Positions 11,404 to 31,436 of a stretch of DNA of 36,881 bases are shown piece after piece. The stretch lies in contig MFMA01000027.1 in NCBI GenBank assembly GCA_001783355.1, forward strand, positions 12,000 through 48,880. Reading direction: 5' to 3'. Source of the stretch: Candidatus Kaiserbacteria bacterium RIFCSPLOWO2_01_FULL_54_20 (GTDB taxonomy: Bacteria > Patescibacteriota > Minisyncoccia > Phycocordibacterales > UBA2100). How positions within the stretch are numbered: the stretch's first letter is position 1; every line of letters starts with the position of its first letter. A model generated the notes under the pieces. That model was given only the letters and a program-made list of their open reading frames with translations. It was not told the DNA's origin and did no database searches. The position numbers and the translations under genes are program-made.

Positions 11404-11426
11404 TCAAAGTTAGAAAAGGTTTCAAC

Positions 11427-12713: not shown

Positions 12714-12805
12714 AATAGGAAAATCATTTTCTCCAATGGGGGTAAAGCTTGCTGTCGCACTGGATGGCTGCGCGTCGCAGGCAGGCGTATTCTGATGAAA
12801 TATTG

Positions 12806-12811
12806 TAGAAT
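12806..12811 (+). promoter_or_regulatory. -10-like hexamer TAGAAT 6 nt upstream of the ATG at 12818 (leaderless geometry)
   Basis: The + strand reads TAGAAT-ACGGCC-ATG. Confidence 0.4.
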
Positions 12812-12817
12812 ACGGCC

Positions 12818-13363: not shown

Positions 13364-13420
13364 AGGAGGTCACGTTTTTCTTTGAATAAGTCGAGCTTTT
13401 GTGCTATACCGAACGGCAAT

Positions 13421-14428: not shown

Positions 14429-14431
14429 GCT

Positions 14432-15463: not shown

Positions 15464-15467
15464 CGGT

Positions 15468-16769: not shown

Positions 16770-16830
16770 ATCCCGCTCGTTCAGTCCGGTCGGTATGCAT
16801 CGCTGCTATTACCAACGTAAAAAGGGCGGG

Positions 16831-17823: not shown

Positions 17824-17836
17824 TACAAGTTACCCT

Positions 17837-18982: not shown

Positions 18983-18989
18983 GAACAGT

Positions 18990-19601
18990 ATGAAAGCCCC
19001 GGATGCAATCGTCGTACTCTCAGGCGGCATTAAGCAAATCGCTGGCCGCTGGGTGAGTACTGACTTTACCGACCATGATGATAGGCAGGGGGCTCCTGGC
19101 GCTTCACTGAGGGTTGCGGCTGCCACGATACTCAGCAAGCGATATCCTTCGGCTCGGATCATAGCGAGCGGAGGCGCGGGCTATGATGTACCGGAAGACG
19201 CTCCAAAAAATCGTCCGCTCTTGTGCGAAATATTGAAAGCGGAGCTTGTCGCTGCAGACGTCCCCGAGGAACGTATTGAGCTTGAGAACGCATCCAACAC
19301 AACGTATCAACAGCTGCAACAGCTGGAGATTCTTATCCGACACAGATCATTTCGCAGCGTTGCCATTATTTCAAGCCGCTGGCACCTGCCGCGGATCGAG
19401 ACCATGCTCAATGTAAAATTCTCGGCATTACGAGCGAGCGTCGGGCTTGTGTCCGCCGAGGAGATATTGATTGAGGCGGACCCGGCGCGTTGGGGGCCCA
19501 TGATCGCGAAAGCATACGCCAGCGCATTTATGGCAGAAAGAATGGCCAACGAGAATCGGGGCATTTCGCAGATAAAAAATGGCACATATCAATTTCGATA
19601 A
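18990..19601 (+). CDS. DUF218 / YdcF-family protein
   Basis: 203 aa. AIVVLSGG start, SNTTYQQL and ISSRWHLPR motifs are characteristic of DUF218. Confidence 0.65.
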   Translation: MKAPDAIVVLSGGIKQIAGRWVSTDFTDHDDRQGAPGASLRVAAATILSKRYPSARIIASGGAGYDVPEDAPKNRPLLCEILKAELVAADVPEERIELENASNTTYQQLQQLEILIRHRSFRSVAIISSRWHLPRIETMLNVKFSALRASVGLVSAEEILIEADPARWGPMIAKAYASAFMAERMANENRGISQIKNGTYQFR

Positions 19602-19622
19602 ATCTCAATTACACTTGACTCC

Positions 19623-20279
19623 ATGAGGAAACTGAAGATAAGCATTCTTAACGACAGCCCGCGCAGCTGGTTTGTACCTTACGGGCAGGAGCTCGTTCTG
19701 AAGCTGAGAGAGCGCGGTCACGAAGTGGCCAGGATAGAAAATACGCAGGAATTACCACGCGGCGACATCGCTTTTTTCCTCAGTTGCGAACAAATCATCG
19801 GCAAAGACGTGCGGGACCGTAACACGAACAATATCGTTATTCACGCGAGCGCCCTGCCGCAAGGAAAGGGATGGTCCCCGCTTGCCTGGCAGATCCTGGA
19901 GGGAAAAAATGAGATTACGCTTACGATGTTTGAAGCGGCAGACGACGTTGACGCAGGAGACGTATTCGCGACAGAAACGATTACATTTGATGGTCATGAA
20001 CTGATTGACGAAATGCGGCAAAAGGAAGGAGAAGCAATCATCAGTCTCGCGCTCCGATTCGTTGACGCATATCCGAATGTCACCAGTCGTCCGCAGGAGG
20101 GGAAAGAGAGTATATACCCCAAACGCGCACCGAAAGACAGCGAGCTTGACCCAAAAAAGCCGCTTACCGAACTGTTCAACCAGTTGCGAGTCGCCGATAA
20201 TGAACGGTATCCGGCGTTCTTTACCCATCGCGGGCACACCTATGTGCTGAAGATATTCAAGAAAGACAATGAAAAATAA
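19623..20279 (+). CDS. Formyltransferase-fold protein (Formyl_trans_N-like) with a non-canonical active-site motif
   Basis: 218 aa. VIHASALPQGKG...DDVDAGDV matches the H-x-S-L-L-P-x-x-R/K-G and Asp motifs. The Asn of the canonical N-x-H is replaced by Val (NNIVIH; His codon at 19842-19844). Confidence 0.6.
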   Translation: MRKLKISILNDSPRSWFVPYGQELVLKLRERGHEVARIENTQELPRGDIAFFLSCEQIIGKDVRDRNTNNIVIHASALPQGKGWSPLAWQILEGKNEITLTMFEAADDVDAGDVFATETITFDGHELIDEMRQKEGEAIISLALRFVDAYPNVTSRPQEGKESIYPKRAPKDSELDPKKPLTELFNQLRVADNERYPAFFTHRGHTYVLKIFKKDNEK

Positions 20280-21318
20280 AAGTATGAAAGTAAGCGGGCG
20301 CGCCGTAGGAGCGGGTCATCCGGCCCTCATCGTCGCCGAGCTCTCCGGCAACCACAACCATGATATAAAACGTGCCATAAAGATAATAGATGCCGCGGCC
20401 GAAGCGGGTGCCGATGCGATAAAACTTCAGACGTATACGCCGGATACACTCACTATTAAGTCCGCCACCAAGCCTTTTCGCGTAACGTGGAAAGGGAAGC
20501 GCCGCACCCTGTACGATTTATACGAGGAAGCCTACACACCGTGGGAGTGGCACAAGGAACTATTTGCGCACGCAAAAAAACGCGGCCTTATCTGTTTTTC
20601 CACCCCGTTTGATAATTCTGCCGTGGATTTTCTGGAGAAACTCGGACAACCGATATACAAAGTTGCCTCATTTGAGATCATCGATATCCCGCTCCTTGAG
20701 CGCATCGGCAAAACAAAAAAGCCGGTCATACTGTCGCGGGGCATGGCATCAGTAGAAGAAATTCGTTTAGCTCTGAAGACGTTGCGAAAGTTCGGAACCA
20801 AAGATATTGTCCTTCTGCACTGCATAAGTGCGTATCCTGCGCGCCCGAAAGACATGCACCTTTCCACCATTCCCGACATGCGCACGCGCTTCGGCGTTAG
20901 TGTCGGGCTTTCCGACCACACGCTCGGAATAGATGTCGCTATTGCCGCCGTTGCTCTCGGCGCCGTCATTATTGAAAAGCATCTCACGCTCCGACGCAAA
21001 GATGGCGGGCCTGATTCGAGTTTCTCCCTGGAACCGAACGAATTTGCAGAAATGGTGCGCGGGGTGCGAACGGTTGAGGATGCGCTCGGGCGACCCTCAT
21101 ATTCCGAGAGCACGTACGAAAAAAAGAATATTGTTTTTCGCAAATCTCTTTTCGTCGTGCGTGACATGAAGAAAGGGGAAACGTTCACGCCGGATAACGT
21201 ACGCTCCATTAGGCCCGGGAACGGACTCGCGCCCAAGTTCTACCGTTCAGTCGTAGGGAAACGTGCCGCTCGCGATATCTCCCGCGCGACCCCTTTGCAC
21301 AATGGTTTGATAGCGTAG
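20269..21318 (+). CDS. pseI: Pseudaminic acid synthase (NeuB family with C-terminal SAF domain)
   Basis: 349 aa. LIVAELSGNHNHD, ADAIKLQTYT and SDHTLG motifs, followed by a C-terminal SAF-like segment. An alternative ATG at 20284 avoids the 11-nt overlap with the upstream gene. Confidence 0.8.
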   Translation: MKNKSMKVSGRAVGAGHPALIVAELSGNHNHDIKRAIKIIDAAAEAGADAIKLQTYTPDTLTIKSATKPFRVTWKGKRRTLYDLYEEAYTPWEWHKELFAHAKKRGLICFSTPFDNSAVDFLEKLGQPIYKVASFEIIDIPLLERIGKTKKPVILSRGMASVEEIRLALKTLRKFGTKDIVLLHCISAYPARPKDMHLSTIPDMRTRFGVSVGLSDHTLGIDVAIAAVALGAVIIEKHLTLRRKDGGPDSSFSLEPNEFAEMVRGVRTVEDALGRPSYSESTYEKKNIVFRKSLFVVRDMKKGETFTPDNVRSIRPGNGLAPKFYRSVVGKRAARDISRATPLHNGLIA

Positions 21319-21331
21319 TATTGAAAATATC

Positions 21332-22021
21332 ATGAGCGATCATTCTGTACTCGTAGTTATTCCGGCCAAGGCGCGCTCTACGCGCATTCCGGGAAAGAAT
21401 CTGAAAGACTTGTGCGGCAAGCCGATGATGGCCTACATCATAGAAACGGCCAAAGGAGCGAAAGGTGTGGACCGCGTTGTTGTGACGACAGAATCCGAGG
21501 AGATTAAGAAGGTTGCCGAACGGTACGGTGCGGAAGTTCCGTTTCTCCGTCCGCCGGAACTCACCTCGGACACGGCGACTTCCCAAGAAGTGGTCTCGCA
21601 CGCGCTTTCCGCACTCAAAGCGCACGATGGGTACGACCCAGAGTACGTACTCTTGCTCTACCCAACATCGCCCCTACTCTCGCGCGAGCGGGTTGAGCAG
21701 GCCATCGCTCTCGCGATCGAGAAAGATGCTGATTCGGTGGTGAGCGGCTACTACGATAAGGGGCATTATTGGATAGAAGATAAAGGTGCGTGGAAAAGAC
21801 TGTACCCGGTGCACCCGGTCAATAGCCAGTACCAGGACCCGCTCTTCAAAGAGAACGGCGCGATATACATGACGCGCGCTTTGGCACTGCAGAAGCAAAA
21901 GCAATTGCTCGCCGATCGTGTAGAGGTGCTTCTGATGAATCCTGACGAGAATATTGACGTTGATTATCCGGAGGATTTCGCACGCGTTGAAGCTACCCTT
22001 CGCGATAGGCGCGGAACATAA
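21332..22021 (+). CDS. pseF: CMP-pseudaminic acid synthetase / acylneuraminate cytidylyltransferase family
   Basis: 229 aa. VIPAKARSTRIPGKNLKDLCGKPMMAY N-terminal motif of the CTP_transf_3 family. Directly follows pseI. Confidence 0.8.
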   Translation: MSDHSVLVVIPAKARSTRIPGKNLKDLCGKPMMAYIIETAKGAKGVDRVVVTTESEEIKKVAERYGAEVPFLRPPELTSDTATSQEVVSHALSALKAHDGYDPEYVLLLYPTSPLLSRERVEQAIALAIEKDADSVVSGYYDKGHYWIEDKGAWKRLYPVHPVNSQYQDPLFKENGAIYMTRALALQKQKQLLADRVEVLLMNPDENIDVDYPEDFARVEATLRDRRGT

Positions 22022-22148
22022 CGGCAGGAAAGGCTGTATCGGTAAAAAATGGACTTTTCTGCGGCAGATGTCGTCGCATTTCTAAAAAGACGCCCCGATC
22101 TTGTTGCGATCAATCCAGGAGCGCGACAGAACATCCCGCCGGGTTGAT

Positions 22149-24062
22149 CTAGAAGCGCGGATCTATCGTTTTAAGCGCTTTCATTCCAGCTGCGAAGCCC
22201 TCACCGCCGAATTTATGTCCCTGCCAGATCTCCGGGAGTATCCAGTGTTTTGTACGAACGAGATACGCAAGAAGCATTTTAAAATCGATCGCACCATCGC
22301 CGATACGCAGCCCCTCGCCTCCCCAATTAGCGGCATCAGAAACGTGAATATACTTTGTAACGGGCAAGATCGTTTTGACGAAATCCTCGAACTTTTTGCC
22401 ATACCGATTGCAGTAAAGCGCGGCATGCGATGTGTCGAACACGATCCCGTACCCTGTCTTTTTTGAGAACTCAGCTATTTCTTCGGCGTCCATGAAATTG
22501 GCGTGATGCCACGTTCCGCCGAAATACCACGGACTTCCGGGCATATTCTCGACGAGAAGTTGAAGTCCCTCGTCATGGAGCTTCGACAGGGAATCAAGCA
22601 GGTTCGCATTTAGCTCCTTTTTGTGTTCTAGAAGCGGTCGTTCCATGTCCATTCCGCCAGGATGGATCACCACCTTGACTAAACCATCGCGATTCCGGAA
22701 ATTTTTCTTGAGGCGTCGTGCATGGTCGAGCGCCTTGTTAAAGAAAGCAACAGACCGCCTTCTTGTTTCCTTGTTCCTACTCGACAAGTCAAGCAGAAGG
22801 TCGCCGTCATACTCAGGCCCATGCACGACCAAGTCTCGATCATACGTGGTAGTACCGACACGATCGTGATGGATATCGCTATCACTGAGGTGGATCTCGA
22901 CAAAATCCGAATTTAGATGCAGGAGCGTGTCAATATCCGTCATCCGCCCCACGACGCCCCACTTGCGATTGAACGTGAGTTTCTCGATGTCTGACGGCGG
23001 CCTGGGGAGTCCTACGTCGGACTCGAGAATATAATCATCTTTCTTTATGTCGCGCGTGGTCACGGCGCTTCCAATGAAATAATCATACTTGATCGGTGTC
23101 GTGCCCTTACCGGGGCTTTTCACAGTGATATCTTTCGCACTCAAGATGCTGCCTTTTTTAATGGCCCGCGCAGCAACAAGAGATTTCGACAAATTTTCCC
23201 GGTTCAAAAACTCTCCACGAGAGGGATACCGTACAGGCTCTCCGATCCCTATCTCCGTAGCGCGTATTCCTCTGACAAGTTCTTTAAACTCATCAGGTTC
23301 TAGGCTGGCTTTGTGGTCAGGCCCCGGCAGTGTTCTATCGAGCGTTATGTGCTTTTCGATCACCCGGGCACCAAACGCAACCGCCGCGATAGAAATTGCG
23401 ATCCCGCTCTCGTGACCGGAGTATCCAACCGGACGTCCTCCGGATATCTCCTTGAGCCGCGGTAGGAATGCAAGATTAATGTCATAGTAGGGTGCCGGGT
23501 ACGTACTATTGCAGTGAAGGAACATGTAATTGGCTTTCTCTTTCTCAAGGAATTTAGCAACGTGCTCGATCTCCGAAACAAAAGACATGCCTGTCGATAT
23601 GAGCATTGGTTTTCTCATCCGGGCGACCTTTCTCAGAAGTGGAAGGTTGAACATGTCCGGAGAGCCGATCTTGAAGAACTGGACCCCAAGCTTGTTGAGA
23701 AAGCGCATACTCTTCTCATCCCAAGGCGTACATGCAAAACGTATGCCTTTCTTTTTTGCATACATCGCAAGCGACTTCATTTCGTTTTCGCTCAACTCGT
23801 TCTTTATGATGTGTTCAAGCAGATACTGCTGTGCATGTTCTTCACCCTGCGGGTTTCGGAGAACGTCACTTTTGTATACATCCTGCATTGAACGTTTCTG
23901 GAATTTTACGCAATCAGCGCCGGCATTCTTGGCCGCGTCGATAAGAGCACGCGCCATTTTTACATCACCTTGGTGAGCGAGACCCACCTCGGCAATAATG
24001 TAGGTCGGGTGCTTGTCGCCTATAAGGCGGCTACCAATACGAAATTCACGCACTTCACTCAT
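22149..24062 (-). CDS. Fusion protein: NeuB-like sialic-acid-type synthase plus SAF domain, fused to a xylose-isomerase-like TIM barrel (sugar phosphate isomerase/epimerase, AP_endonuc_2-like)
   Basis: ATG at 24062 (MSEVREFRIGS...). The track ORF starts at the GTG at 24077, overlapping the SDR stop by 7 nt. The N-terminal ~355 aa carry IIAEVGLAHQGD, CVKFQKR, SGHESG and a SAF segment. The C-terminal ~275 aa (nt ~22152-22976) have TIM-barrel isomerase-like motifs (VVIHPG, LLVENMPG, FDTSHA, HVSD). Confidence 0.8.
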   Translation of the reverse strand: MSEVREFRIGSRLIGDKHPTYIIAEVGLAHQGDVKMARALIDAAKNAGADCVKFQKRSMQDVYKSDVLRNPQGEEHAQQYLLEHIIKNELSENEMKSLAMYAKKKGIRFACTPWDEKSMRFLNKLGVQFFKIGSPDMFNLPLLRKVARMRKPMLISTGMSFVSEIEHVAKFLEKEKANYMFLHCNSTYPAPYYDINLAFLPRLKEISGGRPVGYSGHESGIAISIAAVAFGARVIEKHITLDRTLPGPDHKASLEPDEFKELVRGIRATEIGIGEPVRYPSRGEFLNRENLSKSLVAARAIKKGSILSAKDITVKSPGKGTTPIKYDYFIGSAVTTRDIKKDDYILESDVGLPRPPSDIEKLTFNRKWGVVGRMTDIDTLLHLNSDFVEIHLSDSDIHHDRVGTTTYDRDLVVHGPEYDGDLLLDLSSRNKETRRRSVAFFNKALDHARRLKKNFRNRDGLVKVVIHPGGMDMERPLLEHKKELNANLLDSLSKLHDEGLQLLVENMPGSPWYFGGTWHHANFMDAEEIAEFSKKTGYGIVFDTSHAALYCNRYGKKFEDFVKTILPVTKYIHVSDAANWGGEGLRIGDGAIDFKMLLAYLVRTKHWILPEIWQGHKFGGEGFAAGMKALKTIDPRF

Positions 24063-24070
24063 GCGCTTTT

Positions 24071-24853
24071 TTACCACGCCGTGAAGCCACCGTCAACGGT
24101 AACGATCGAACCAGTTGCGTAGGATGAGGCATCTGAAGCAAGAAAGATAACGATACCGGACGCCTCTTCAGGCTTTGCCATTCGTCCCAGGGGCGTCTTT
24201 TCGCTGTATCGTTTTACGAATTCGGGACTTTGGTCATTCTCAAAACCACCGAACACGATTGCGTTGACGCGGACCCCGTTCTTTCCCCAGAGCGTCGCCA
24301 GATATTTCGTGATGTTCAAGACGGCAGCCTTGCTCGCGCCGTACACGGCAGGCTTCTCGAAACCGGCGGGATATATGCGTTGGTCCGGCGCGACGACCCC
24401 GTAAATAGATGCAATATTGATGATAGATGCACCAGACCCCATAAGCGGATACAGAGTGCGACACACGAGCATGATGCCGGTTAGATTCACGCGGAGTTCC
24501 TTTTCCCACTTTTCAATCGGGTAGTTCTCGAACGTTATTCCATTGTTACCACCATCCTCCACCCGCGGGTTAAATGCCGCATTGTTGATAAGAACATCGA
24601 TCCCGGTGAACTTCTCCTTGATCTGATCCGCGGCCTCGTGTAATGCACTCTCGTCGGTAATGTCGCATTGAAAGTAAGTGGCATCGGCATTCGCTGCTGC
24701 GAGTCGGGCTTTCCCCTCTGTCGGCGAAAGGATGTCGAGTGCGATCACACTTGCTCCCTCGTTCACGAGTGCACGCGCGAGAGACAGCCCTAAAAAACCG
24801 CATGCTCCGGTGAGCGCAACCCTTTTTCCGCGTATGGAGATGGTCTGGTTCAT
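24071..24853 (-). CDS. Short-chain dehydrogenase/reductase (SDR)
   Basis: 260 aa. TGACGFLG (TGxxGxxG) and YGASKAAV (Y-x3-K) motifs. ATGA overlap with the upstream aminotransferase. Confidence 0.85.
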   Translation of the reverse strand: MNQTISIRGKRVALTGACGFLGLSLARALVNEGASVIALDILSPTEGKARLAAANADATYFQCDITDESALHEAADQIKEKFTGIDVLINNAAFNPRVEDGGNNGITFENYPIEKWEKELRVNLTGIMLVCRTLYPLMGSGASIINIASIYGVVAPDQRIYPAGFEKPAVYGASKAAVLNITKYLATLWGKNGVRVNAIVFGGFENDQSPEFVKRYSEKTPLGRMAKPEEASGIVIFLASDASSYATGSIVTVDGGFTAW

Positions 24854-26202
24854 GCAGGTTTCTTTTTAGCGATACCGGTCGATCGGTCGCCCACGTTCTT
24901 GAATATCTGCTCGAGAACACTGCCTCGAAGACGTTTCTTTAGATCGCCCGTGTTGAGCGCATCTGCAACGAGAGCGAACACCTCATCGTACACCTCAAGC
25001 GTATAGGTAGCGTGTTCTTCCGTGTGTGCGAAAGAGGGTAGGTGATACCCGATGAAGAGGATGCCGCGTGCGGCGCATTCCTGTTGCACGAATGTTTTTA
25101 TTTCTAGTGGTTTAATGCCGTTCGTCTCGGAAAAGCTTATTGCTGTTTTTTGAGGATACCCGAGTATCGACATGCTCTCCTCTAGCTTGTGCTTTGCAAT
25201 AAGCTCGTGTACGCCGTTTTTGAGCATTGTTCCTATTTTCCAAATGTGTTCGTACACAGGTTCCCGCCTCAACTTACCGATCGACGCTACTGTTGCGGCA
25301 AGAGAGAGCGCCTCTCCTGCATATGTGAACGAGAAGAAAACCTCCTCGAATTCTTCCATGATATCCCGCCTTCCAGTCACTGCAGCGATCGGCATGCCGT
25401 TTGCCATTGCTTTTCCGAAAGTCGCAAGGTCTGGCGTAACCTTGAAAAATTCCGATGCGCCTCCGAGTGCCCACCGAAAACCACAGAAGAGCTCATCGTA
25501 AATAAGAACGATTTTTTCTTTAGTAGCAAGTGCGCGCACGGCCTCAAGAAAACCCGGTTTTGGCTCAATTACATATACCGGTTCCATGATGATCGCCGCT
25601 ATATCACCCTTATTATCAGCGATGATCTTTTCGAATGAAGCAATGTCATTATATTGGGCCGGGAAGGAGAGTTTTTTATTGAATGCAGCGACGCCCTTAT
25701 CACGCTCGGTCGTCGCTATAAACCAGTCGTGCCAGCCGTGATAACCGCACGTGATGATCTTCTCTTTGCCGGTGTATGCGCGCGCAAGCTTCACCGCGCC
25801 AGTGGTCGCATCGCTGCCGTTCTTGCCGAACCGCACCATTTCTGCGCAGGGGATGACTTCCGTAATTAATTTTGCAACCTCTATCTCAAGGGGGTGTGGA
25901 AGCGTGAACATGGTCCCGTCCTTCAGCTGTGCTTGTATCGCAGTGTCGACGTCGGGGTCGCCGTATCCAAGGATAAATGGCCCGAGCCCCATGCCGTAGT
26001 CTATATATGTATTTCCATCGACGTCCGTTACCTCACACCCCTTGGCAGATCTCAGGAACAGCGGGGAGGCTCCAACGCTCCATTGCGTGTACCCTTTTGA
26101 AAGTGTCTGCGTAGCGCAAGGAATGAGTCTCTTAGCTTCTTCGAGAAGACGCAGCGATTCTTCAAGCCTCGGCGGTCCTCTCCTTTTGTAAGACGAATCC
26201 AT
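24850..26202 (-). CDS. Class III PLP aminotransferase (glutamate-1-semialdehyde 2,1-aminomutase-like)
   Basis: 450 aa. GSDATTGAVKLAR, IMEPV and DLATFGKAMANGMP (PLP Lys) motifs. Confidence 0.85.
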   Translation of the reverse strand: MDSSYKRRGPPRLEESLRLLEEAKRLIPCATQTLSKGYTQWSVGASPLFLRSAKGCEVTDVDGNTYIDYGMGLGPFILGYGDPDVDTAIQAQLKDGTMFTLPHPLEIEVAKLITEVIPCAEMVRFGKNGSDATTGAVKLARAYTGKEKIITCGYHGWHDWFIATTERDKGVAAFNKKLSFPAQYNDIASFEKIIADNKGDIAAIIMEPVYVIEPKPGFLEAVRALATKEKIVLIYDELFCGFRWALGGASEFFKVTPDLATFGKAMANGMPIAAVTGRRDIMEEFEEVFFSFTYAGEALSLAATVASIGKLRREPVYEHIWKIGTMLKNGVHELIAKHKLEESMSILGYPQKTAISFSETNGIKPLEIKTFVQQECAARGILFIGYHLPSFAHTEEHATYTLEVYDEVFALVADALNTGDLKKRLRGSVLEQIFKNVGDRSTGIAKKKPA

Positions 26203-26211
26203 AATATGGCC

Positions 26212-26220
26212 ATTCTAGCA
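26212..26220 (-). promoter_or_regulatory. Extended -10 promoter candidate TGcTAGAAT, 9 nt upstream of the ATG at 26202
   Basis: The minus strand reads TGCTAGAAT-GGCCATATT-ATG, in the 39-bp spacer between the cytidylyltransferase and the aminotransferase. This implies a 2-3 nt or absent leader. Confidence 0.4.
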
Positions 26221-26241
26221 ACTACGCAGGCCCGGTGCGAC

Positions 26242-27048
26242 CTATTTTGGCTCTTCTCTATACTGTGTATGGTCGACCGTTTTTAGTTCGGCGGCGCTTG
26301 ATCGATACCAATTAACCCCATTGTACCTCTCGTTGATCTTGGCGATCTCCGGTTTGTCCTTAAGCAATCGCAGGATATCATCTGTACCGAAATGTGGCTT
26401 ACCCTGAAGCTCTTCGTAAACACGCGAGATGAATTCCCAGTCTTCCGGATAATCGAGGGTCCACCGATGTGTCATGAACATATTGCCGCGTGGATTCTCG
26501 ACGTTGCCTATCCGAAACCGATTCGGTTGATCCCAGATGAAAGGGAACGTATGTTCACGTTCGTGCGGTTTTTTCGCTTCGCGCCACGCGACCTCCATAA
26601 CCCCGAATGTGCATCCTTCGACATCCAGTCCGTCTGGGAACGTCGGTGGATGGTAGTTGCTTACGTAATCGTATGTGTGCGGATCGTCGGTCCACAGGCC
26701 CAACACTTCATCGATGACCGCCGGGTCGGTCAGAGGACAGTCCGAGCCGATCTTAACGACAAAATCGGCCCCGAATATTTTCGCCGCCTGGTAGTGCCTG
26801 TCGAGAAGATCCAATTCGCTTCCTCGAAAGCATGGAACCGAATATTTCTTGCACAGCGTGTCGATCGCGTCATCTGTGGAACGTGTTGTCGTGATGACGA
26901 CGACGTTGTCGGGTAGCTTCGCCCGTTTGATGCGACCTATTTGGTGTACCAGGATCGGTTTATCCAGCACTTCTTTGAGTACTTTGCCTGGCAAGCGCGA
27001 TGAGCCTGTTCGCGCTTGAACGCATACCACGATAGCAGGCCTGTTCAT
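26242..27048 (-). CDS. SpsF-like cytidylyltransferase (CTP_transf_3 family)
   Basis: 268 aa. VCVQARTGSSRLPGKVLKEVLDKPIL N-terminal motif and the SpsF-type C-terminal extension (WTLDYPEDWEF). ATGA overlap with the upstream methyltransferase. Confidence 0.8.
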   Translation of the reverse strand: MNRPAIVVCVQARTGSSRLPGKVLKEVLDKPILVHQIGRIKRAKLPDNVVVITTTRSTDDAIDTLCKKYSVPCFRGSELDLLDRHYQAAKIFGADFVVKIGSDCPLTDPAVIDEVLGLWTDDPHTYDYVSNYHPPTFPDGLDVEGCTFGVMEVAWREAKKPHEREHTFPFIWDQPNRFRIGNVENPRGNMFMTHRWTLDYPEDWEFISRVYEELQGKPHFGTDDILRLLKDKPEIAKINERYNGVNWYRSSAAELKTVDHTQYREEPK

Positions 27049-28007
27049 GATCTCTTTTTTCCCACGAACACGAGGCTCTCACCGAGCCCGAGTTTTCCTA
27101 CCAGATCGCGATATTCGCGGTCAGTGCGTTCGATGAACGCATTCAATGCTTTTTCGGCCGATGTTTTCGCGTGGGGAACGAGCTGAGCGGTCATGCCTAG
27201 GTCAAAATTGCTCTGCGGCTTTTGCGCGGTTATCCAATGGATGTGGTTCATGAGCGTATAGCGCTGAACGGTTCGTATCTCACCTGCGAATCCGGCCTTA
27301 GACAATGCGCGTCGTAGCGTCGCTTTTGAGAAATATGAAAGATGAGGCTCACGGTAGTAGAAAGTTTCGTACCCTTTTGCGCCATACGCCACCAAAAGCA
27401 CGTCATCGATGTTCGGAAGCTCAAGATAAAGATGCCCGTTCGGTTTCAAGTGCTTTCCAAGATTTCGAAGAAACGTTATTGGGTCCTCAACATGTTCCAG
27501 GACTTGAAGTGCCGTAATGACGTCGAACGGTCCTTCCGGGATATGTAGAGTTTCAACGGGCTTGTCGTACACCGGAAAATCCAAGTTTTTTCGTACAAAC
27601 GCGACCTCCTCACTCGAAAGCTCAACTCCGACTCTTGTATTCACCCTGCCCTTGAGTGAGTGTAGGAAATGTCCGGTTGAACATCCGACATCTAGGATTT
27701 TTGTCCCGGACTTGAGCAGCGTGCCCATTGATTCGTGAATGAGGTGTTGATAGGGAAGATACATCTCGAATATCTCCTTTGGGGAACTTTTCTTAGCGAG
27801 GTTCGGCCCATGATGCTTCCTGTATTCTTTTCCCGCATAGAACTTCTTGCTGATGTGTGGTCGCTCGAGGTATACAAATCCGCAGTTGACGCACCTCAAA
27901 ACATTGCGTTTAATGTTGAAGCGGAGCCTGTCACGAACCAATATGGCGCGATTTCCGTGGCACACATAACACGTTGCTGCCAGCATCTTCTTTCTCATGA
28001 GACACAT
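27045..28007 (-). CDS. Class I SAM-dependent methyltransferase with an N-terminal Cys4 zinc-ribbon
   Basis: 320 aa. CYVCHG...CVNCGF ribbon, then ILDVGCSTGHFL motif I. The start at 28007 is favoured by CATAAT 6 nt upstream. Alternative ATGs lie at 27998 and 27986. Confidence 0.75.
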   Translation of the reverse strand: MCLMRKKMLAATCYVCHGNRAILVRDRLRFNIKRNVLRCVNCGFVYLERPHISKKFYAGKEYRKHHGPNLAKKSSPKEIFEMYLPYQHLIHESMGTLLKSGTKILDVGCSTGHFLHSLKGRVNTRVGVELSSEEVAFVRKNLDFPVYDKPVETLHIPEGPFDVITALQVLEHVEDPITFLRNLGKHLKPNGHLYLELPNIDDVLLVAYGAKGYETFYYREPHLSYFSKATLRRALSKAGFAGEIRTVQRYTLMNHIHWITAQKPQSNFDLGMTAQLVPHAKTSAEKALNAFIERTDREYRDLVGKLGLGESLVFVGKKRS

Positions 28008-28019
28008 ACTGTCATTATG
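28005..28019. promoter_or_regulatory. Back-to-back leaderless promoter/start module shared by two divergent genes
   Basis: The + strand reads CATACT-GTCATT-ATG (28017). The - strand reads CATAAT-GACAGT-ATG (28007). Each start codon lies inside the other gene's -10-like hexamer. The two ATGs are separated by 9 bp. Confidence 0.4.
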
Positions 28020-29534
28020 CGGTCAATTCTTCAAGGCATGAAAGGCTGTTTTATTTTGCAGCGCCGTTTCGCGTATGTTGGGCACGAAATCGTGCGGATA
28101 CTGAAAACCGAGCATGGTGTCAAAGAATTTTGCGCTTTCGTCACGACGAGGGTTAGTCTCAAGTATTTGTTGCAACAAAAAGATATTTCGTATTCCGCGC
28201 TTCTTCTCGACGAAGATGTACAGCGCAGATATCGGAACGAGGTTATCGATAGGGACTATCTCGCATGGCTGGAGAGCGAGTATGGGATCCCAAATCTCTG
28301 GCCATATATAAATGTCGATCGCGTGATCCGCTTCGGGCAACTCGTGCGCGAATACCCGCATGATGCCCCCAGCTACGATCATGAAGATATGTTAAAGATG
28401 CTTCAGTGCTACGCAAAAGCCATCATTGCTTTCTTAGACAGGGAAAAACCTGCGTTCCTTTTTTCGACCCCTCCCGGCGCAATGTGTACGGTCCTGCTTC
28501 ACCATATTGCAAAAAAGAGGGGAGTACAGACTCTGGTCATGGGTTTCCCCGGTATTCGCAATCGTGCCCTCGTTTCAGAGCGGTATGATCGATTCACGTT
28601 CGTTGAGTCATTAGTGAATAAACATCGTGAGCGGGCGATCAAAGACATCCCGCATTTTGAAGATGCAAGAAATTTTATCCGCGAGTTTCGAGAAAGGCCG
28701 CGTGTTTACTCAGAGATCCATGAGCCGGTACGCAGAAAATTCACGCGGCGTCAGTATTTCAATTTTCTATCCCCGATGAGGTTGGCTCGTATGTCTGGAT
28801 GGATCCTCGTGATGATCCATGAGTGGTGGGGAGATCCCGATGCTCGCGGAGATTATTCCACAATCCCTCCATGGAATTTTATTTTTGATGCGGTGAAACG
28901 AAAGATACGCAACCTGATCGGGTTCGACGATCTGTATGATGAATGGGATCCCTCTCTCCCATTCGTCTTCTATCCGCTACATTTGGAACCCGAATTAAAT
29001 CTTCTTCTTCTGGCTCGGTTCGATATCGAACAGCTCGGCGTTATCCGCCGCGTTGCGCAGTCCCTACCAGTCGGAATGAAGTTGGTCGTCAAGGAACATC
29101 CGCAGATGGTGTCACTTCGAACTCGTCGCTTTTATAAAGAGATAAAAAAAATTCCCAACACGGTTCTCATTCGTCCGGAGATATCAGGATTTGACGTGAT
29201 CGCGCGCGCCGCCCTTGTTGCGGTGATCTCGGGGACCGCAGGCTGGGAGGCGACGCTTTTTGGAAAGCCAGTCATAACGTTCGGCGAGATCTTCTATAAC
29301 GCATTGCCTTCGGTGACTCGTTCACGGATCCCGGAAGAGTTGCCGGCGCTCGTGAAGGACAGGCTAACACACGCTTCTTTTAATGAAGACGCACTTACCC
29401 GGTTCGTTGCCGCTATCTTTGAAGATTCTGTAGAAGCCGACATGCTCAATATCTGGGAACTGGGAGGAGGTCCAGACCGGAAAACACAAATATCCGCGTT
29501 CGCCTCACTTATTGCATCCAAAGTTTACGGCTGA
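28017..29534 (+). CDS. KpsS/KpsC-like (Capsule_synth-type) protein, paralog of 9973..11403
   Basis: The track ORF 27735..29534 was trimmed because its 5' part overlaps the divergent methyltransferase. The ATG at 28017 fits the hexamer-6-ATG geometry; an alternative ATG lies at 28038. Motifs: YPLHLEPE...VKEHPQM...ISGTAGWEATLFGKPVITFG. Confidence 0.5.
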   Translation: MRSILQGMKGCFILQRRFAYVGHEIVRILKTEHGVKEFCAFVTTRVSLKYLLQQKDISYSALLLDEDVQRRYRNEVIDRDYLAWLESEYGIPNLWPYINVDRVIRFGQLVREYPHDAPSYDHEDMLKMLQCYAKAIIAFLDREKPAFLFSTPPGAMCTVLLHHIAKKRGVQTLVMGFPGIRNRALVSERYDRFTFVESLVNKHRERAIKDIPHFEDARNFIREFRERPRVYSEIHEPVRRKFTRRQYFNFLSPMRLARMSGWILVMIHEWWGDPDARGDYSTIPPWNFIFDAVKRKIRNLIGFDDLYDEWDPSLPFVFYPLHLEPELNLLLLARFDIEQLGVIRRVAQSLPVGMKLVVKEHPQMVSLRTRRFYKEIKKIPNTVLIRPEISGFDVIARAALVAVISGTAGWEATLFGKPVITFGEIFYNALPSVTRSRIPEELPALVKDRLTHASFNEDALTRFVAAIFEDSVEADMLNIWELGGGPDRKTQISAFASLIASKVYG

Positions 29535-30569
29535 TCAAGAACGACGCCTGGTCGCTATCATTTCCAGATCTGCCCTTGTCATCATACGCACAAGTTCAGT
29601 GAAGGATAGTTCCGGTTTCCAGTTAAGCTCCTTTCGGGCCTTTGAGCTGTCTCCGCGAAGATCGTGGACCTCACGAGGCCGGTAGAATTTTTTGTCTATC
29701 TTTACAATGACATTCCCCGATCTATCCTTCCCAACCTCCTTCGTGCCCTTGCCACTCCACGACATCGTCATATCAAGTTCTGCCGCGGCAGCCTCAACAA
29801 AGTCTCGTACGGAGTGGGAAACCCCTGTCGCAATCACATAATCCCCCGGCTTTTTTTGCTGAAGCATCATGTGCATCGCTCGTACATAGTCACCCGCAAA
29901 TCCCCAATCTCGCCTCGCGTTGAGGTTTCCGAGTATGAGGCATTGCTGGAGACCCAATTTAATTTTGGCAAGTGAAATCGTTATTTTTCTCGTAACAAAA
30001 TGCTCGCCGCGCCTGGGGCTCTCATGATTGAAAAGGATTCCTGAGCAAATGAACATTCCGTACTTTTTTCTATAGCCCCTGACGTAATCTTCGTATGCCA
30101 TTAATTTTGCGACTCCATACGGCGATACAGGCGAGAATTTTGAGGTCTCATTTTGCGGTGGCCGCGTGTCCCCGAACATTTCCGACGTCGAAGCGTGGTA
30201 TATCTTTGCCTTGGGAACGATCGTCATCGCCTCGATCAGCAAGCGTCCGAGCCCGAAGTAGTTTACCTCCATGGTTTCCTCAGGGCATTTAAATGATATA
30301 CCAACGTCGGATTGCGCGGCGAGGTTATATATCTCATCTGGCTTAGACTCATTGAGCGCTCGCGCTATGGATGCGCTGTCGCGAAGATTCCCGTAGATCA
30401 ACCGGACATTGGGATGATGCGCTACGGTTTCGATACGCATCATGGGGTCAAGAGACGTCCGCCGGACAAGCCCGTATACTTCATAATTCTTCTTGAGCAG
30501 ATACTCTGCCAGGTAAGAACCGTCTTGGCCGGTTATGCCGGTGATCAGTGCGCGTTTCCTTTTTTTCAT
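29535..30569 (-). CDS. gmd: GDP-mannose 4,6-dehydratase
   Basis: 344 aa. ALITGITGQDGSYLAEYLL, STSEMFG, SPYGVAKL and LFNHESPRRG motifs are diagnostic. Its stop abuts the stop of the convergent gene (TGATCA at 29532-29537). Confidence 0.9.
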   Translation of the reverse strand: MKKRKRALITGITGQDGSYLAEYLLKKNYEVYGLVRRTSLDPMMRIETVAHHPNVRLIYGNLRDSASIARALNESKPDEIYNLAAQSDVGISFKCPEETMEVNYFGLGRLLIEAMTIVPKAKIYHASTSEMFGDTRPPQNETSKFSPVSPYGVAKLMAYEDYVRGYRKKYGMFICSGILFNHESPRRGEHFVTRKITISLAKIKLGLQQCLILGNLNARRDWGFAGDYVRAMHMMLQQKKPGDYVIATGVSHSVRDFVEAAAAELDMTMSWSGKGTKEVGKDRSGNVIVKIDKKFYRPREVHDLRGDSSKARKELNWKPELSFTELVRMMTRADLEMIATRRRS

Positions 30570-30626
30570 TCAGCCATCCTACAGCCTTAGCGGCGTTTTG
30601 CAATTTGCGCTCCTGTCGTTTTCCTG

Positions 30627-30632
30627 CATTAT
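30627..30632 (+). promoter_or_regulatory. -10-like hexamer CATTAT 6 nt upstream of the ATG at 30639 (leaderless geometry)
   Basis: The + strand reads CATTAT-GGCCAT-ATG. It contains the 10-mer ATGGCCATAT (30631-30640), also found at the 26202 start. On the other strand, TAGGAT (30576-30581) sits 6 nt upstream of the gmd ATG. Confidence 0.3.
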
Positions 30633-30638
30633 GGCCAT

Positions 30639-31436
30639 ATGACTCGCAAGAAAGCAGTATCAGTCGCAGTGTCGGGAGGGTTTGACCCGCTTCATATCGG
30701 GCATGTACGGATGTTCAGGGCCGCGCGAAAACTGGGCGATGCGCTTGTTGTCATCATGAACAACGACCACTGGCTCCGCGCGAAGAAAGGATTTATCTTC
30801 ATGCCGCAGAAGGAGCGCGCCGAGATAATCCGGCACCTGCCATTCGTTGATAAGGTCGTCTTCACCGACCACAAAAAAGGCGATACCGACAAAAGCGTCT
30901 CCCGCACGCTCGCGAAGGTACGACCTGATATTTTTGCGAATGGCGGTGACCGGTTCTCGAAGAATGTTCCTGAAGTCGCTGTGTGCAAAAAGCTCGGAAT
31001 AAAAATGGTCTTCAATGTGGGAAAGGGCGGCAAAGTGCAATCTTCTTCGTGGATGATCAATGCCTCGCGGAAGCCCGCATCGGAGACCGTGCGACCATGG
31101 GGTTCATACTTTGGATGGGACAGCGGGAAGGGATGGAATCTGAAAACGGTCTACGTAAAGCCTAGGAAACGATTAAGCCTCCAATATCATAAGGGGCGCA
31201 GCGAGCACTGGATATTGGTAGGGGGCGATGCGCTCGCAACGATCAAAAATCCTTCGGGTTTCATGGAAACGTACCCTCTGCGACTTGGCGAATCGTTCCA
31301 CATAGGGAAGGGAATGGTGCATCGCTTGGAGTCAAAAAAAGGTGGGGTCATTGTTGAGGTTGCACTAGGGCACTTTGACGAAAACGACATAGTCCGTTTG
31401 CAGGATGACTTTGGGCGCTCCGGAAAAAGGTCGTGA
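30639..31436 (+). CDS. Fusion of a HIGH-motif cytidylyl/adenylyltransferase-like domain (CTP_transf_like) with a type II phosphomannose-isomerase-like cupin domain
   Basis: 265 aa. N-terminal SGGFDPLHIGHVRMF (H-x-G-H). From aa ~150 (nt ~31086): RPWGSY...LSLQYHKGRSEHWILVGG...MVHRLE cupin motifs. Confidence 0.7.
   Translation: MTRKKAVSVAVSGGFDPLHIGHVRMFRAARKLGDALVVIMNNDHWLRAKKGFIFMPQKERAEIIRHLPFVDKVVFTDHKKGDTDKSVSRTLAKVRPDIFANGGDRFSKNVPEVAVCKKLGIKMVFNVGKGGKVQSSSWMINASRKPASETVRPWGSYFGWDSGKGWNLKTVYVKPRKRLSLQYHKGRSEHWILVGGDALATIKNPSGFMETYPLRLGESFHIGKGMVHRLESKKGGVIVEVALGHFDENDIVRLQDDFGRSGKRS

Follow-up and report, generated by a model that had tools for sequence, protein, structure and literature searches.

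A five-gene operon of Candidatus Kaiserbacteria may encode a self-contained route to a CMP-activated, tailored ulosonic acid of the Kdn type, built on the phosphorylated logic of Bacteroides and animals, with a TIM barrel fused to the synthase as the phosphatase. We favour this reading from sequence comparisons but hold it tentatively. The operon lies on the minus strand at 22149-28007 of the window (the whole 36,881-nt stretch of DNA that was analysed) and consists of tightly packed co-directional genes for a Zn-ribbon methyltransferase, an SpsF-type cytidylyltransferase, a class III aminotransferase, a classical SDR and a NeuB-SAF-TIM fusion (Table 1). The first three junctions are a 4-nt overlap, a 39-nt gap and a 4-nt overlap; the fourth depends on the start codon of the fusion, with a 7-nt overlap for GTG and an 8-nt gap for the ATG at 24062, which gives the 637-aa protein as it stands in public databases (P0001, 100% identity). 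The arrangement is not due to chance, since its synteny is conserved in unrelated genomes. An earlier note on this DNA had described the packed minus-strand run, assigned domains to its products and credited it with a synthase and a CTP-dependent activating enzyme of its own; the reading frames and junctions agree with the first point, and Pfam and NCBIfam domain searches with all five assignments and with both enzymes.

Table 1. Coordinates and best domain matches of the operon, the parts of its fusion protein and the neighbouring genes
Feature	Size	Position	Strand	Match
Methyltransferase	320 aa	27045..28007	-	Methyltransf_23 E 8e-27
SpsF-type cytidylyltransferase	268 aa	26242..27048	-	CTP_transf_3 E 1.6e-22
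Class III GSA-aminomutase-like PLP enzyme	450 aa	24850..26202	-	Aminotran_3 E 4.6e-52
Classical SDR	260 aa	24071..24853	-	adh_short_C2 E 7.7e-54
NeuB-SAF-TIM fusion	642/637 aa	24077/24062-22149	-	NeuB E 3e-81, SAF E 2.3e-13, AP_endonuc_2 E 1e-23
NeuB + SAF part of fusion	residues 1-350 of 637-aa protein	23013..24062	-	NeuB, SAF
TIM barrel of fusion	residues 365-637 + stop codon	22149..22970	-	AP_endonuc_2
PF05159 (KpsS/KpsC-like 'Capsule_synth') protein	~505 aa	28017..29534	+, divergent	Capsule_synth E 3.7e-08
GDP-mannose 4,6-dehydratase (Gmd)		29535-30569	-	TIGR01472 428 bits vs cutoff 415
Nucleotidyltransferase + mannose-6-P-isomerase C-terminal domain protein		30639-31436	+	CTP_transf_like + MannoseP_isomer

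The NeuB-SAF half of the fusion matches human NANS at 41% identity and 256 bits (the NANS sequence used was confirmed exact), an identity that alone is not proof of a phosphorylated substrate, and the two are reciprocal best matches within the comparison set. The corresponding values are 34% and 189 bits for N. meningitidis NeuB, and 35% and 171 bits for the window's own PseI. Across the fusion family (77 sequences) the catalytic residues E25, K53, Q55, H217 and H238 are invariant, as are R57, N287 and K293, and R288 differs in one sequence only. Bacterial NeuB enzymes with a SAF domain conserve an essential residue, Arg314, through which the N-acetyl group of free ManNAc is bound; mammalian 9-phosphate synthases lack this residue (PMC11339185, PMC8208679). 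Its equivalent is Ser, Gly or Thr in every one of the 77 fusions, and the adjoining PseI retains Arg. These features point to a NANS-like, PEP-condensing ulosonate synthase, probably with a sugar 6-phosphate as substrate.

Consistent with the earlier note, the module lacks the hallmark steps of the Pse, Leg and bacterial Neu5Ac routes: domain and NCBIfam searches detected in it no PseB/LegB-type dehydratase, DegT aminotransferase, LegC or LegH, nor any NeuC-, LegG- or PseG-type NDP-sugar hydrolase. The note had also called the product of similar gene combinations biochemically undefined and the operon a candidate for an undescribed pathway. Searches found no characterised orthologue of the five proteins (all stay under the NCBIfam equivalog cutoffs and PDB matches are all distant), and a literature search returned nothing on the NeuB-SAF-TIM fusion, which is a widespread but unstudied family; to this extent both statements stand. 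A wholly new route does not follow, because the missing dehydratase, DegT enzyme and NeuC are explained more simply by a NANS-like synthase that probably takes a sugar 6-phosphate.

A profile search of the PDB with the TIM domain gave MJ1311 (3wqo) as the sole significant match (E 2e-16), followed by endonuclease IV (0.004-0.013), and hhalign probabilities were 87% for E. coli Nfo, 49% for UlaE and 22% for YcjR. MJ1311, a 'D-tagatose 3-epimerase-like protein' of unknown function, is the closest solved relative by both sequence and structure (Foldseek E 8e-11), and the TIM domain has the motifs HxP, HPG, ENxP, DxxHA and HxxD in common with it and with Nfo. Residues H391, H414, E417, H467, E505, D543, H546, H573, D576, E583, E611 and H616 are each invariant or have one exception among 77 sequences. 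Each equivalent of the endonuclease IV ligands H109, E145, D179, H182 and H216 is conserved in at least 76 of the 77 sequences, and H414 and E611 likely correspond to its H69 and E261. The zinc-3 ligands D229 and H231 are missing, the site reading DEH in MJ1311, DRH in Nfo and GEG in the fusion. Unlike MJ1311 and Nfo, the domain occurs in every case in linkage with a NeuB-type synthase, with no sign of a DNA-related role; where it forms a separate gene (the split pair at L092) it lies beside NeuB-SAF. These comparisons make the barrel a metalloenzyme with conserved ligands, a relative of MJ1311 and endonuclease IV, and not a generic isomerase appendage. The call of a NeuB-SAF-TIM fusion was correct.

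To place the operon in context we compared 84 related loci, 77 of which contain a full-length fusion. No gene is a universal partner across the 84 loci, and the question posed in the earlier note, whether the five genes travel as a unit, is answered in the negative. The commonest partner of the fusion is a cytidylyltransferase, found within 4 kb in 46 of the 77 loci as the NeuA type and in a further nine as the SpsF type, and the next is an SDR of the same cluster as the window's (44 of 77, again within 4 kb). The core of the system is the fused synthase with a cytidylyltransferase, and the SDR and a PF05159 transferase are its usual companions. The latter adjoins the operon here and, like Gmd beyond it, had been left out of the earlier description. 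Synteny in relatives makes it part of the system: the gene lies beside the module at L087, at L085 and on the P0125 contig, and at 25 loci of Chloroflexota it directly follows the fusion on its downstream side. It is a candidate CMP-sugar transferase. Minimal clusters of cytidylyltransferase and fusion, which lack the SDR and retain the TIM domain, occur in Orenia and Nitrospirae and therefore imply a central metabolite as substrate. In Orenia the fused synthase sits in a flagellin glycosylation island, as the suggested recurrence in such loci would have it. The window-type class III aminotransferase adjoins the module in only a few Patescibacteria, is not beside it in L087 (the closest relative with gene calls), and gives way to a DegT enzyme in others. 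It is tied to the SpsF-type cytidylyltransferase, and its slot in relatives holds a DegT enzyme or is empty; an aminated product would therefore be lineage-specific.

The TIM domain may be a ulosonate-9-phosphate phosphatase or, alternatively, a sugar epimerase or isomerase. In Lewinellaceae (L088) an SDR and a cytidylyltransferase-aminotransferase fusion accompany a HAD protein and a SAF-less, NANS-like NeuB, with no TIM domain; L009 and the P0125 contig have the same fusion and an SDR with NeuB-SAF-TIM and no HAD. We count this apparent non-orthologous displacement toward the phosphatase role, and in Chloroflexota SAF-less NANS-like NeuB genes directly adjoin a HAD gene. To our knowledge, no AP_endonuc_2 protein acts as a sugar-phosphate phosphatase. 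A possible but doubtful alternative is that the product is still a CMP-ulosonic acid and the TIM domain acts as an epimerase or isomerase, which either makes the aldose or aldose phosphate for the synthase (for example by converting Fru-6-P to Man-6-P, or by C2 epimerisation) or epimerises the carbon beside an SDR-made keto group before reduction or transamination, as YcjR does with YcjS. Foldseek with the TIM model favours this, the top matches being mostly ketose 3-epimerases at TM ~0.6 and including UlaE and YcjR, and the AP_endonuc_2 family consists mostly of sugar isomerases and epimerases, databases labelling the domain 'sugar phosphate isomerase/epimerase'. The ligand set E505/D543/H573/E611 (E-D-H-E) is common to the domain and the ketose 3-epimerase metal site, and the frequency of the SDR suits a dehydrogenase-epimerase pair. 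Additional HAD and kinase genes beside the fusion in some Uhrbacteria loci could provide the phosphatase step, and some Chloroflexota loci have HAD and NeuB genes as well as the fusion, so that a TIM phosphatase is not obviously needed at either set of loci. However, MJ1311 and endonuclease IV outrank every epimerase in sequence-profile searches, and the invariant or near-invariant H391, H414, H467 and H616 lie outside what we take to be the mononuclear epimerase site. The clusters without an SDR keep the TIM domain, and at L088 a HAD protein is present exactly where the domain is missing.

The SpsF-type enzyme reaches neither the KdsB nor the PseF equivalog cutoff, its best PDB match being 6oew ('Cytidylyltransferase', E 3.5e-38), and we infer that it is a CMP-ulosonate synthetase. 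Its homologues occur fused to a class III aminotransferase or to NeuB-SAF-TIM itself (P0091), and cytidylyltransferase-aminotransferase fusions of roughly 705 aa make up about 70% of the aminotransferase's 120 best homologues. The aminotransferase best matches the GSA-aminomutase-like PRK06209 (370 bits against a cutoff of 486); an identity as HemL was rejected (TIGR00713, 269 bits against 527). Its PDB neighbours are GSAM (E 7e-61), the sugar C-6' aminotransferases 7lm0 and 7lld (E 1e-41 to 1e-42) and 6cbk, and 7lm0 and 6cbk are class III enzymes that aminate sugar aldehydes. By this resemblance it would act on a sugar carbonyl made by the SDR, which has the motifs TGxxxGxG and S...YxxxK and would oxidise a hydroxyl to a carbonyl for transamination or, in relatives without an aminotransferase, for epimerisation. 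The methyltransferase, encoded by the operon's first gene, has an N-terminal zinc ribbon (C13-x2-C16 and C39-x2-C42) and the SAM motif I ILDVGCSTG; orthologues 53-66% identical adjoin the module in L005, L009, L013 and L087. Its probable role is O- or N-methylation of the sugar.

Another way to view the operon is as an accessory branch fed by neighbouring nucleotide-sugar routes, which we consider unlikely. PEP would then be joined to a 6-deoxy or amino hexose, from a GDP-sugar (the Gmd product) or a Pse intermediate, to give a 9-deoxy nonulosonic acid, or else pseudaminic acid would be the sugar that the aminotransferase, SDR and methyltransferase modify. A complete-looking Pse cluster, convergent to the operon, ends at 22021, Gmd lies close to the module at many loci of Patescibacteria (PMI-type genes recur there as well), and several loci have a DegT enzyme in the aminotransferase slot. 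Legionaminic acid in C. jejuni is made from GDP-linked precursors. A class III aminotransferase and SpsF-type cytidylyltransferase pair also lies within the Pse cluster of L087 and L005, but that aminotransferase is only 38% identical and hence a paralogue. Against a branch of this kind, the 2-acetamido-binding Arg of NeuB and PseI is missing throughout the fusions, the synthase is nearer NANS than either, the module lacks an NDP-sugar hydrolase, and the gene-neighbourhood comparison found no Gmd in the Chloroflexota, Nitrospirae or Orenia clusters. The Gmd and PMI-domain genes (29535..31436) may supply precursors, and their membership of the system is uncertain. A third reading, that the operon makes a known sialic acid and the fusion is simply a synthase for Neu5Ac or legionaminic acid whose extra domain is incidental, is highly improbable: NeuB_NnaB is its top NCBIfam match and databases name it N-acetylneuraminate synthase, but the score of 338 bits is under the equivalog cutoff of 399.65, Arg314 is replaced, NeuC, LegB, LegC, LegH and LegG are absent from the module, and the TIM domain, found fused as well as in a neighbouring gene of its own, is strongly conserved.

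Under the phosphorylated Kdn-type reading that we prefer, the NANS-like domain would condense a hexose 6-phosphate with PEP to a ulosonate 9-phosphate, Man-6-P being the most economical guess because mannose-phosphate genes lie next door. The fused metal-dependent TIM domain would then remove the phosphate in place of the HAD phosphatase of known pathways. The SDR would oxidise a hydroxyl, and the class III PLP enzyme would convert the carbonyl to an amine; Kdo8N and aminoglycoside C-6' amination suggest, as analogies only, that this hydroxyl may be the freed terminal CH2OH. The cytidylyltransferase would form the CMP-sugar, the methyltransferase would add a methyl group, and the divergent PF05159 enzyme would transfer the sugar to a cell-surface glycan. 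The operon would thus follow a variation on the known phosphorylated pathway to sialic acids, its probable product being an acidic sugar resembling Kdn that is aminated, methylated and activated with CMP.

The phosphorylated Kdn route of synthase, HAD phosphatase and CMP-Kdn synthetase is biochemically established (PMC6200933). It is represented by B. thetaiotaomicron BT1714 (Kdn-9-P synthase), BT1713 (HAD phosphatase) and BT1715 (CMP-Kdn synthetase), and the Kdn/Neu5Ac route also by the haptophyte Prymnesium parvum and by human NANS, NANP and CMAS. The window resembles it in its NANS-type synthase, which lacks the Arg314 of free-sugar NeuB, and in the adjoining cytidylyltransferase, and related loci (L088, Chloroflexota) have the classical pair of HAD and SAF-less synthase. 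It differs in having the fused TIM domain and no HAD phosphatase in the module, in the SpsF type of its cytidylyltransferase (BT1713-15 being compared by description), and in the added SDR, aminotransferase and methyltransferase, which is why we predict an aminated, methylated derivative and not plain Kdn. With NeuB, PseI and LegI (N. meningitidis NeuB 1xuu, C. jejuni PseI 8h2c, B. subtilis SpsE 1vli) the fusion shares the fold, catalytic residues, PEP and metal ligands and SAF domain. However, it is only 30-35% identical to them, falls below the NeuB_NnaB and PseI equivalog cutoffs, has Arg314 replaced and a TIM domain at its C-terminus, and comes without dehydratase, DegT, acetyltransferase or hydrolysing-epimerase partners. 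The proposed oxidation and transamination of a finished sugar follows the logic of Shewanella Kdo8N (KdnB oxidase and KdnA aminotransferase) and of aminoglycoside C-6' amination by the class III enzymes GenB and NeoN, and class III C-6' aminotransferases appear among the PDB matches of the window's enzyme. The enzyme families differ, KdnB being an alcohol dehydrogenase of the iron type and KdnA resembling DegT, and the likeness is one of analogy only.

Profile searches against Pfam and NCBIfam uphold the five-gene reading of the earlier note, in that all five minus-strand open reading frames are present and each protein carries the domains that had been named for it (see the table). The first two genes overlap by 4 nt, 39 nt separate the second from the third, the next pair again overlaps by 4 nt, and the last junction is either an 8-nt gap or a 7-nt overlap. 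The database entry of the last protein, the NeuB-SAF-TIM fusion, begins at an ATG, and its GTG-start form had no exact database match. The fusion matches a protein of Candidatus Kaiserbacteria bacterium RIFCSPLOWO2_01_FULL_54_20 at 100% identity, which places the window in a CPR (Patescibacteria) genome. The start of the methyltransferase gene lies only 9 bp from the likely start of a divergent gene for a PF05159 (KpsS/C-like) protein, and therefore both promoters must sit within coding sequence; the mechanically called form of the PF05159 frame, from 27735, would run ~270 nt into the methyltransferase and is probably an overlong call. A scan of 21800-30800 for promoters and terminators gave nothing beyond shuffled expectation.

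The module and other features of the window, with profile matches
Feature	Position	Strand	Matches and remarks
Five-gene module	22149-28007	-	the next five proteins, in order
Methyltransferase	start 28007	-	Methyltransf_23 E 8e-27; N-terminal CxxC...CxxC
Cytidylyltransferase		-	CTP_transf_3 (PF02348) E 1.6e-22
Class III PLP enzyme		-	Aminotran_3 E 4.6e-52; nearest NCBIfam model GSA-aminomutase-like PRK06209, under cutoff
Classical SDR		-	E 7.7e-54
NeuB-SAF-TIM fusion, 637/642 aa	database start ATG 24062	-	NeuB (PF03102) E 3e-81; SAF (PF08666) E 2.3e-13; AP_endonuc_2 E 1e-23
PF05159 protein	28017-29534	+	likely start ATG 28017
Pse cluster	13382-22021	+
PseI of the Pse cluster	20269-21318		473 bits (NCBIfam)
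Nucleotidyltransferase-isomerase protein	30639-31436	+	265 aa; cytidylyltransferase-like nucleotidyltransferase domain (PF01467) and C-terminal mannose-6-phosphate isomerase domain; divergent from Gmd
DUF4910/DUF2172/Peptidase_M28 protein	11400-12713	+	between PF05159/ABC-exporter genes and Pse cluster
Long ORF, edge of glycan locus	86-1738	-	550 aa; no Pfam match
Long ORF, edge of glycan locus	35454-36371	-	305 aa; no Pfam match

The most economical reading of the module is a seven-step phosphorylated route, in which we infer the functional roles past domain identity. The synthase domain, which resembles human NANS (Neu5Ac-9-P/Kdn-9-P synthase), would condense PEP with a hexose 6-phosphate to give an ulosonate 9-phosphate, and the fused, His-rich metal barrel would take off the phosphate. 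The SDR would then oxidise a hydroxyl, the class III enzyme would aminate the resulting carbonyl, and the cytidylyltransferase would form the CMP-sugar, which the methyltransferase would modify before transfer by the divergent PF05159 protein. Man-6-P is the obvious candidate substrate, since a PMI-like gene and the GDP-mannose 4,6-dehydratase gene (gmd) are adjacent, and the existence of two-gene minimal clusters implies a substrate from central metabolism.

The second step depends on the TIM domain, whose family is small and dedicated: an exhaustive homologue search at E <= 1e-3 gave 536 clusters at 50% identity. The majority of the 150 best homologues sit C-terminal to NeuB-SAF, some of them with an extra N-terminal CBS pair (~750 aa), and roughly 20 are stand-alone proteins of 260-320 aa. 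One such stand-alone gene directly follows a NeuB-SAF gene and is itself followed by genes for a methyltransferase, an SDR, an aldo-keto reductase and a cytidylyltransferase. The CBS-bearing fusions (L082:9650-11896, P0299, P0304, P0367; for example in the cyanobacterium Trichormus) form a third architecture and suggest ligand-regulated versions of the enzyme.

AlphaFold modelled the full-length fusion with a pLDDT of 93. A fold search with this model returned NeuB, DAHPS and KDO8PS matches and none to the TIM domain, which was therefore modelled alone (pLDDT 88). The main rival to a phosphatase is that this domain is an epimerase or isomerase, either forming the substrate or paired with the SDR as YcjR is with YcjS. 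The SDR is indeed a frequent partner, and the structural neighbours fit such a role: Foldseek placed MJ1311 first (3wqo, 23% identity), then ketose 3-epimerases, UlaE and YcjR (E 1e-8 to 1e-10), with endonuclease IV (Endo IV) at rank 9 and a TM of ~0.6 throughout. Sequence profiles, however, point the other way. Against the PDB the sole significant match was MJ1311 (E 2e-16), with Endo IV next (0.004 and 0.013) before any isomerase, and hhalign against E. coli proteins gave 87% for Nfo, the E. coli Endo IV (E 4e-6), 49% for UlaE and 22% for YcjR. Residues H391, H414, E417, H467, E505, D543, H546, H573, D576, E583, E611 and H616 have at most one exception each among 77 fusions; the epimerase-type Glu-Asp-His-Glu set is present (E505/D543/H573/E611), but the additional invariant or near-invariant histidines argue against such a role.

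Nfo is a TIM barrel with a trinuclear zinc site and nine metal ligands, H69, H109, E145, D179, H182, H216, D229, H231 and E261, and seven of these have equivalents in the TIM domain. Five are aligned (fusion/Nfo pairs VIH467PGG/NFH109PGS, LVE505NMPG/VIE145NTAG, FD543TSH546A/ID179TCH182A and IH573VSD/MH216LND), and H69 and E261 likely correspond to H414 and E611. The remaining pair, D229/H231, falls in a gap of the hhalign alignment and reads GEG in the fusion and DEH in MJ1311, which presumably conserves the Endo IV zinc ligands. With seven of nine ligands, the domain is thus not a canonical Endo IV member. A phosphatase role for it has indirect support from these Endo-IV-like ligands, from the exchange of a HAD for the TIM protein between loci L088 and L009, from the HAD genes that adjoin genes for SAF-less NANS-like synthases in Chloroflexota loci, and from the minimal clusters.

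The synthase part belongs to the NeuB family with SAF domain, with its PEP, metal and catalytic residues conserved (E25, K53, Q55, K131, Y188, H217, H238 and D249 are invariant across the 77 fusions), and is 30-35% identical to solved bacterial NeuB-type enzymes. It was rejected as a PseI (TIGR03586, 220.6 bits vs a cutoff of 340.25) and as a bacterial NeuB/NnaB (TIGR03569, 338.4 bits vs 399.65), the latter also for its missing Arg314 (N. meningitidis NeuB numbering). Arg314 is essential and contacts the acetyl carbonyl of ManNAc; it is the one conserved catalytic residue that the SAF domain supplies in bacterial enzymes and is missing in mammalian Neu5Ac-9-P synthases (PMC11339185, PMC8208679). 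Alignment places a Ser at this position in the window's fusion (VKSPGKG vs VKRPGNG in N. meningitidis NeuB), and the 77 fusions have Ser (37), Gly (36) or Thr (4) and never Arg, which the window's own PseI retains (IRPGNG). Compared with human NANS, the sequence of which we confirmed by exact look-up, the synthase is 41% identical (256 bits), against 34% (189 bits) for N. meningitidis NeuB and 35% (171 bits) for PseI, and the best matches of NANS within the comparison set are the fusions. By sequence, then, the synthase is of the NANS type, nearer to NANS than to NeuB or PseI, and is predicted to use a sugar 6-phosphate. NANS-type enzymes take Man-6-P or ManNAc-6-P as substrates.

The same evidence bears on a second alternative, in which the module would draw on Gmd or Pse intermediates and yield a 9-deoxy sugar. 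This is disfavoured by the loss of Arg314, by the affinity of the synthase to NANS and by the absence of an NDP-sugar hydrolase. The fusion is unlikely to be an ordinary Neu5Ac or Leg synthase. The KpsS/C-like transferase had also raised the idea of a Kdo-like eight-carbon product, which we dropped because nothing supports it and the haptophyte NANS-type enzyme is specific for Man-6-P and does not accept Ara-5-P (PMC6200933).

To follow the fusion beyond the window, we scanned a single genome for each GTDB species with a sequence pattern and found at least 589 stretches encoding its relatives. Both synthase and TIM domain are covered in all of the best 80, which come from Patescibacteria, Chloroflexota, Nitrospirota, Planctomycetota, Actinomycetota, Verrucomicrobiota, Bdellovibrionota, Elusimicrobiota, Cyanobacteria and a Nanoarchaeia MAG; Orenia marismortui also has a homologue. 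Neighbourhoods were compared by searching 84 loci with the window's proteins (tblastn) and by unbiased clustering of adjacent ORFs, with partners counted among 77 loci. The fusion has no universal partner in these 77, the commonest being a CTP_transf_3 cytidylyltransferase: one of NeuA/PseF-like type lies within 4 kb in 46 loci and one of SpsF-like type in 9, and an SDR does so in 44. A PF05159 gene is directly downstream of the fusion in 25 Chloroflexota loci and, in the Patescibacteria loci that have gene calls, adjoins the module. A class III aminotransferase of the window's type (44-68% identity) stands beside the module only in some cases (L009, L011/L085, L013 and several metagenome contigs); a DegT enzyme takes its slot in L006, L007, L012, L017, L018, L036 and L086, and the closest relative obtained with gene calls (L087, fusion 82% identical) reads methyltransferase, cytidylyltransferase, SDR and fusion, without an aminotransferase. 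Thus, of the five genes in the earlier note, synthase-TIM and cytidylyltransferase do recur together, often accompanied by an SDR and a PF05159 transferase, whereas the genes for amination and methylation have been added to this core in particular lineages.

Several loci show further arrangements. A Paceibacterota MAG encodes a 902-aa triple fusion, cytidylyltransferase-NeuB-SAF-TIM (P0091, L003/L004:10001-12709), with a divergent upstream 571-aa radical SAM protein and several methyltransferases around it. In Chloroflexia and Anaerolineales, L029 (~10031-10873) and L032 (~8757-9605) have a SAF-less NANS-like NeuB directly upstream of, and possibly fused to, NeuB-SAF-TIM (tblastn match of ~2.75 kb), with a further HAD and NeuB pair a few kb off, so that a single locus can hold as many as three NANS-like synthases. 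In 17 Chloroflexota loci the fusion has a bifunctional ATP-sulfurylase/APS-kinase within 4 kb, and in the flagellin glycosylation island of Orenia it is followed by a protein with weak likeness to sulfotransferases and by two members of the sulfatase/phosphodiesterase family. Sulfation genes beside the module in two phyla (L041:6449-8239, L001:11915-15653 and other Chloroflexota loci) may reflect sulfated ulosonic acids.

The cytidylyltransferase falls far under the cutoffs of the CMP-ulosonate synthetase equivalogs KdsB, PseF and NeuA (for example 27 bits vs 205.7 for PseF); it has their fold, and its fusions and its adjacency to NeuB-type synthases make it a putative CMP-ulosonate synthetase. 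Among the best 120 homologues of the window's aminotransferase, approximately 70% unite an N-terminal SpsF-type cytidylyltransferase and a C-terminal class III domain in one protein of ~705 aa. On one contig such a fusion is followed by an SDR, NeuB-SAF-TIM, three methyltransferases, an ABC exporter and PF05159. In a Lewinellaceae locus (Bacteroidota, L088) the fused cytidylyltransferase-aminotransferase, 58% identical to that of L009, has a HAD phosphatase and a SAF-less NeuB as its neighbours; an SDR lies close by, and the TIM protein is absent. The aminotransferase scores 369.8 bits against PRK06209 (cutoff 486), and its PDB neighbours include class III enzymes that aminate sugar aldehydes. 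Assignment as HemL was rejected, given its score (TIGR00713, 268.9 bits vs a cutoff of 527.3) and its glycan-gene partners.

Glycan genes fill almost the entire 36-kb window, with GT4 glycosyltransferases, an ABC exporter, two PF05159 'Capsule_synth' proteins, Gmd, the PMI-like gene and an O-antigen-ligase/TPR protein. The nucleotidyltransferase-isomerase architecture recurs in the related locus L086 at 16896-17807. The lowest GC in the window, 0.41 at 12001-13000, coincides with the DUF4910/DUF2172/Peptidase_M28 gene region, a segment that may have been separately acquired. The Pse cluster had been called canonical, and PseB, PseC and PseI are there, but its additional gene content is unusual. 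PseB is narrowly under its cutoff (400.8 vs 407.75 bits), and the PseF-like cytidylyltransferase reaches 150 bits against 205.7. The extra genes encode a GFO/IDH/MocA oxidoreductase, a second DegT aminotransferase, a DUF218 protein and a formyltransferase-like protein, which suggests that the product is a Pse derivative with an N-formyl or some other modification; a 367-aa protein has just a faint Epimerase_2 match. In the closest Kaiserbacteria relatives, the Pse cluster contains, between PseC and PseI, a paralogous class III aminotransferase (38% identity) with an SpsF-type cytidylyltransferase (L087:13725-15879 and L005 ~15940-17330) and no visible PseG-like gene; this pair may have a different, Pse-related role.

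Sialic-acid-like sugars influence how cell surfaces, flagella and phage receptors are recognised, and the known bacterial routes to Neu5Ac, Leg and Pse begin at nucleotide sugars. The fusion appears to represent a large, taxonomically broad enzyme family that follows the phosphorylated logic of animals and Bacteroides with a different, fused second enzyme, and some lineages couple this synthase family to an amination and methylation branch. The family offers genes with which to test for new CMP-sugars and for an activity that may be new to the endonuclease IV/MJ1311 fold, and bears on surface display in genome-reduced CPR bacteria. A bolder reading, which we hold only tentatively and think rather doubtful, is that NeuB-SAF-TIM marks a major unrecognised environmental Kdn-type route in hundreds of species (Patescibacteria, Chloroflexota, Nitrospirota, Cyanobacteria, Halanaerobiales and DPANN archaea), that its Endo-IV-derived barrel is a new class of sugar-phosphate phosphatase, and that the window's branch converts the product into an undescribed CMP-amino-deoxy-(methyl)-ulosonic acid, which would decorate the CPR surface.

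None of the module's proteins reached the equivalog cutoffs for NeuB, PseI, HemL, KdsB or PseF. Searches of the PDB, NCBIfam and the literature found no solved structure, curated NCBIfam model or paper for either the fusion or the cytidylyltransferase-aminotransferase fusion, and literature searches found no paper on the whole module. The earlier suggestion of an undescribed pathway holds for the tailoring branch and for the fused second enzyme, but the backbone chemistry most likely follows known logic. We take Kdo8N biosynthesis as an analogy. A link to the NulO cluster trio of Leptospira (PMC3438082) proved a weak lead, the SAF-less NeuB of L088 being not especially near the Leptospira structure 6ncs. 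Work on Bacteroides thetaiotaomicron and Prymnesium parvum has demonstrated the route that leads from Kdn-9-P synthase through a phosphatase to CMP-Kdn synthetase (PMC6200933). In the Bacteroides-type CMP-Kdn pathway (BT1713-BT1715) the Kdn-9-P phosphatase is a synthase-adjacent, KdsC-like HAD, which the window's module lacks, unlike L088 and the Chloroflexota loci. The module resembles the phosphorylated Kdn/Neu5Ac route in its logic, but stands outside the Bacteroides-type pathway, of which the HAD phosphatase is a defining part.
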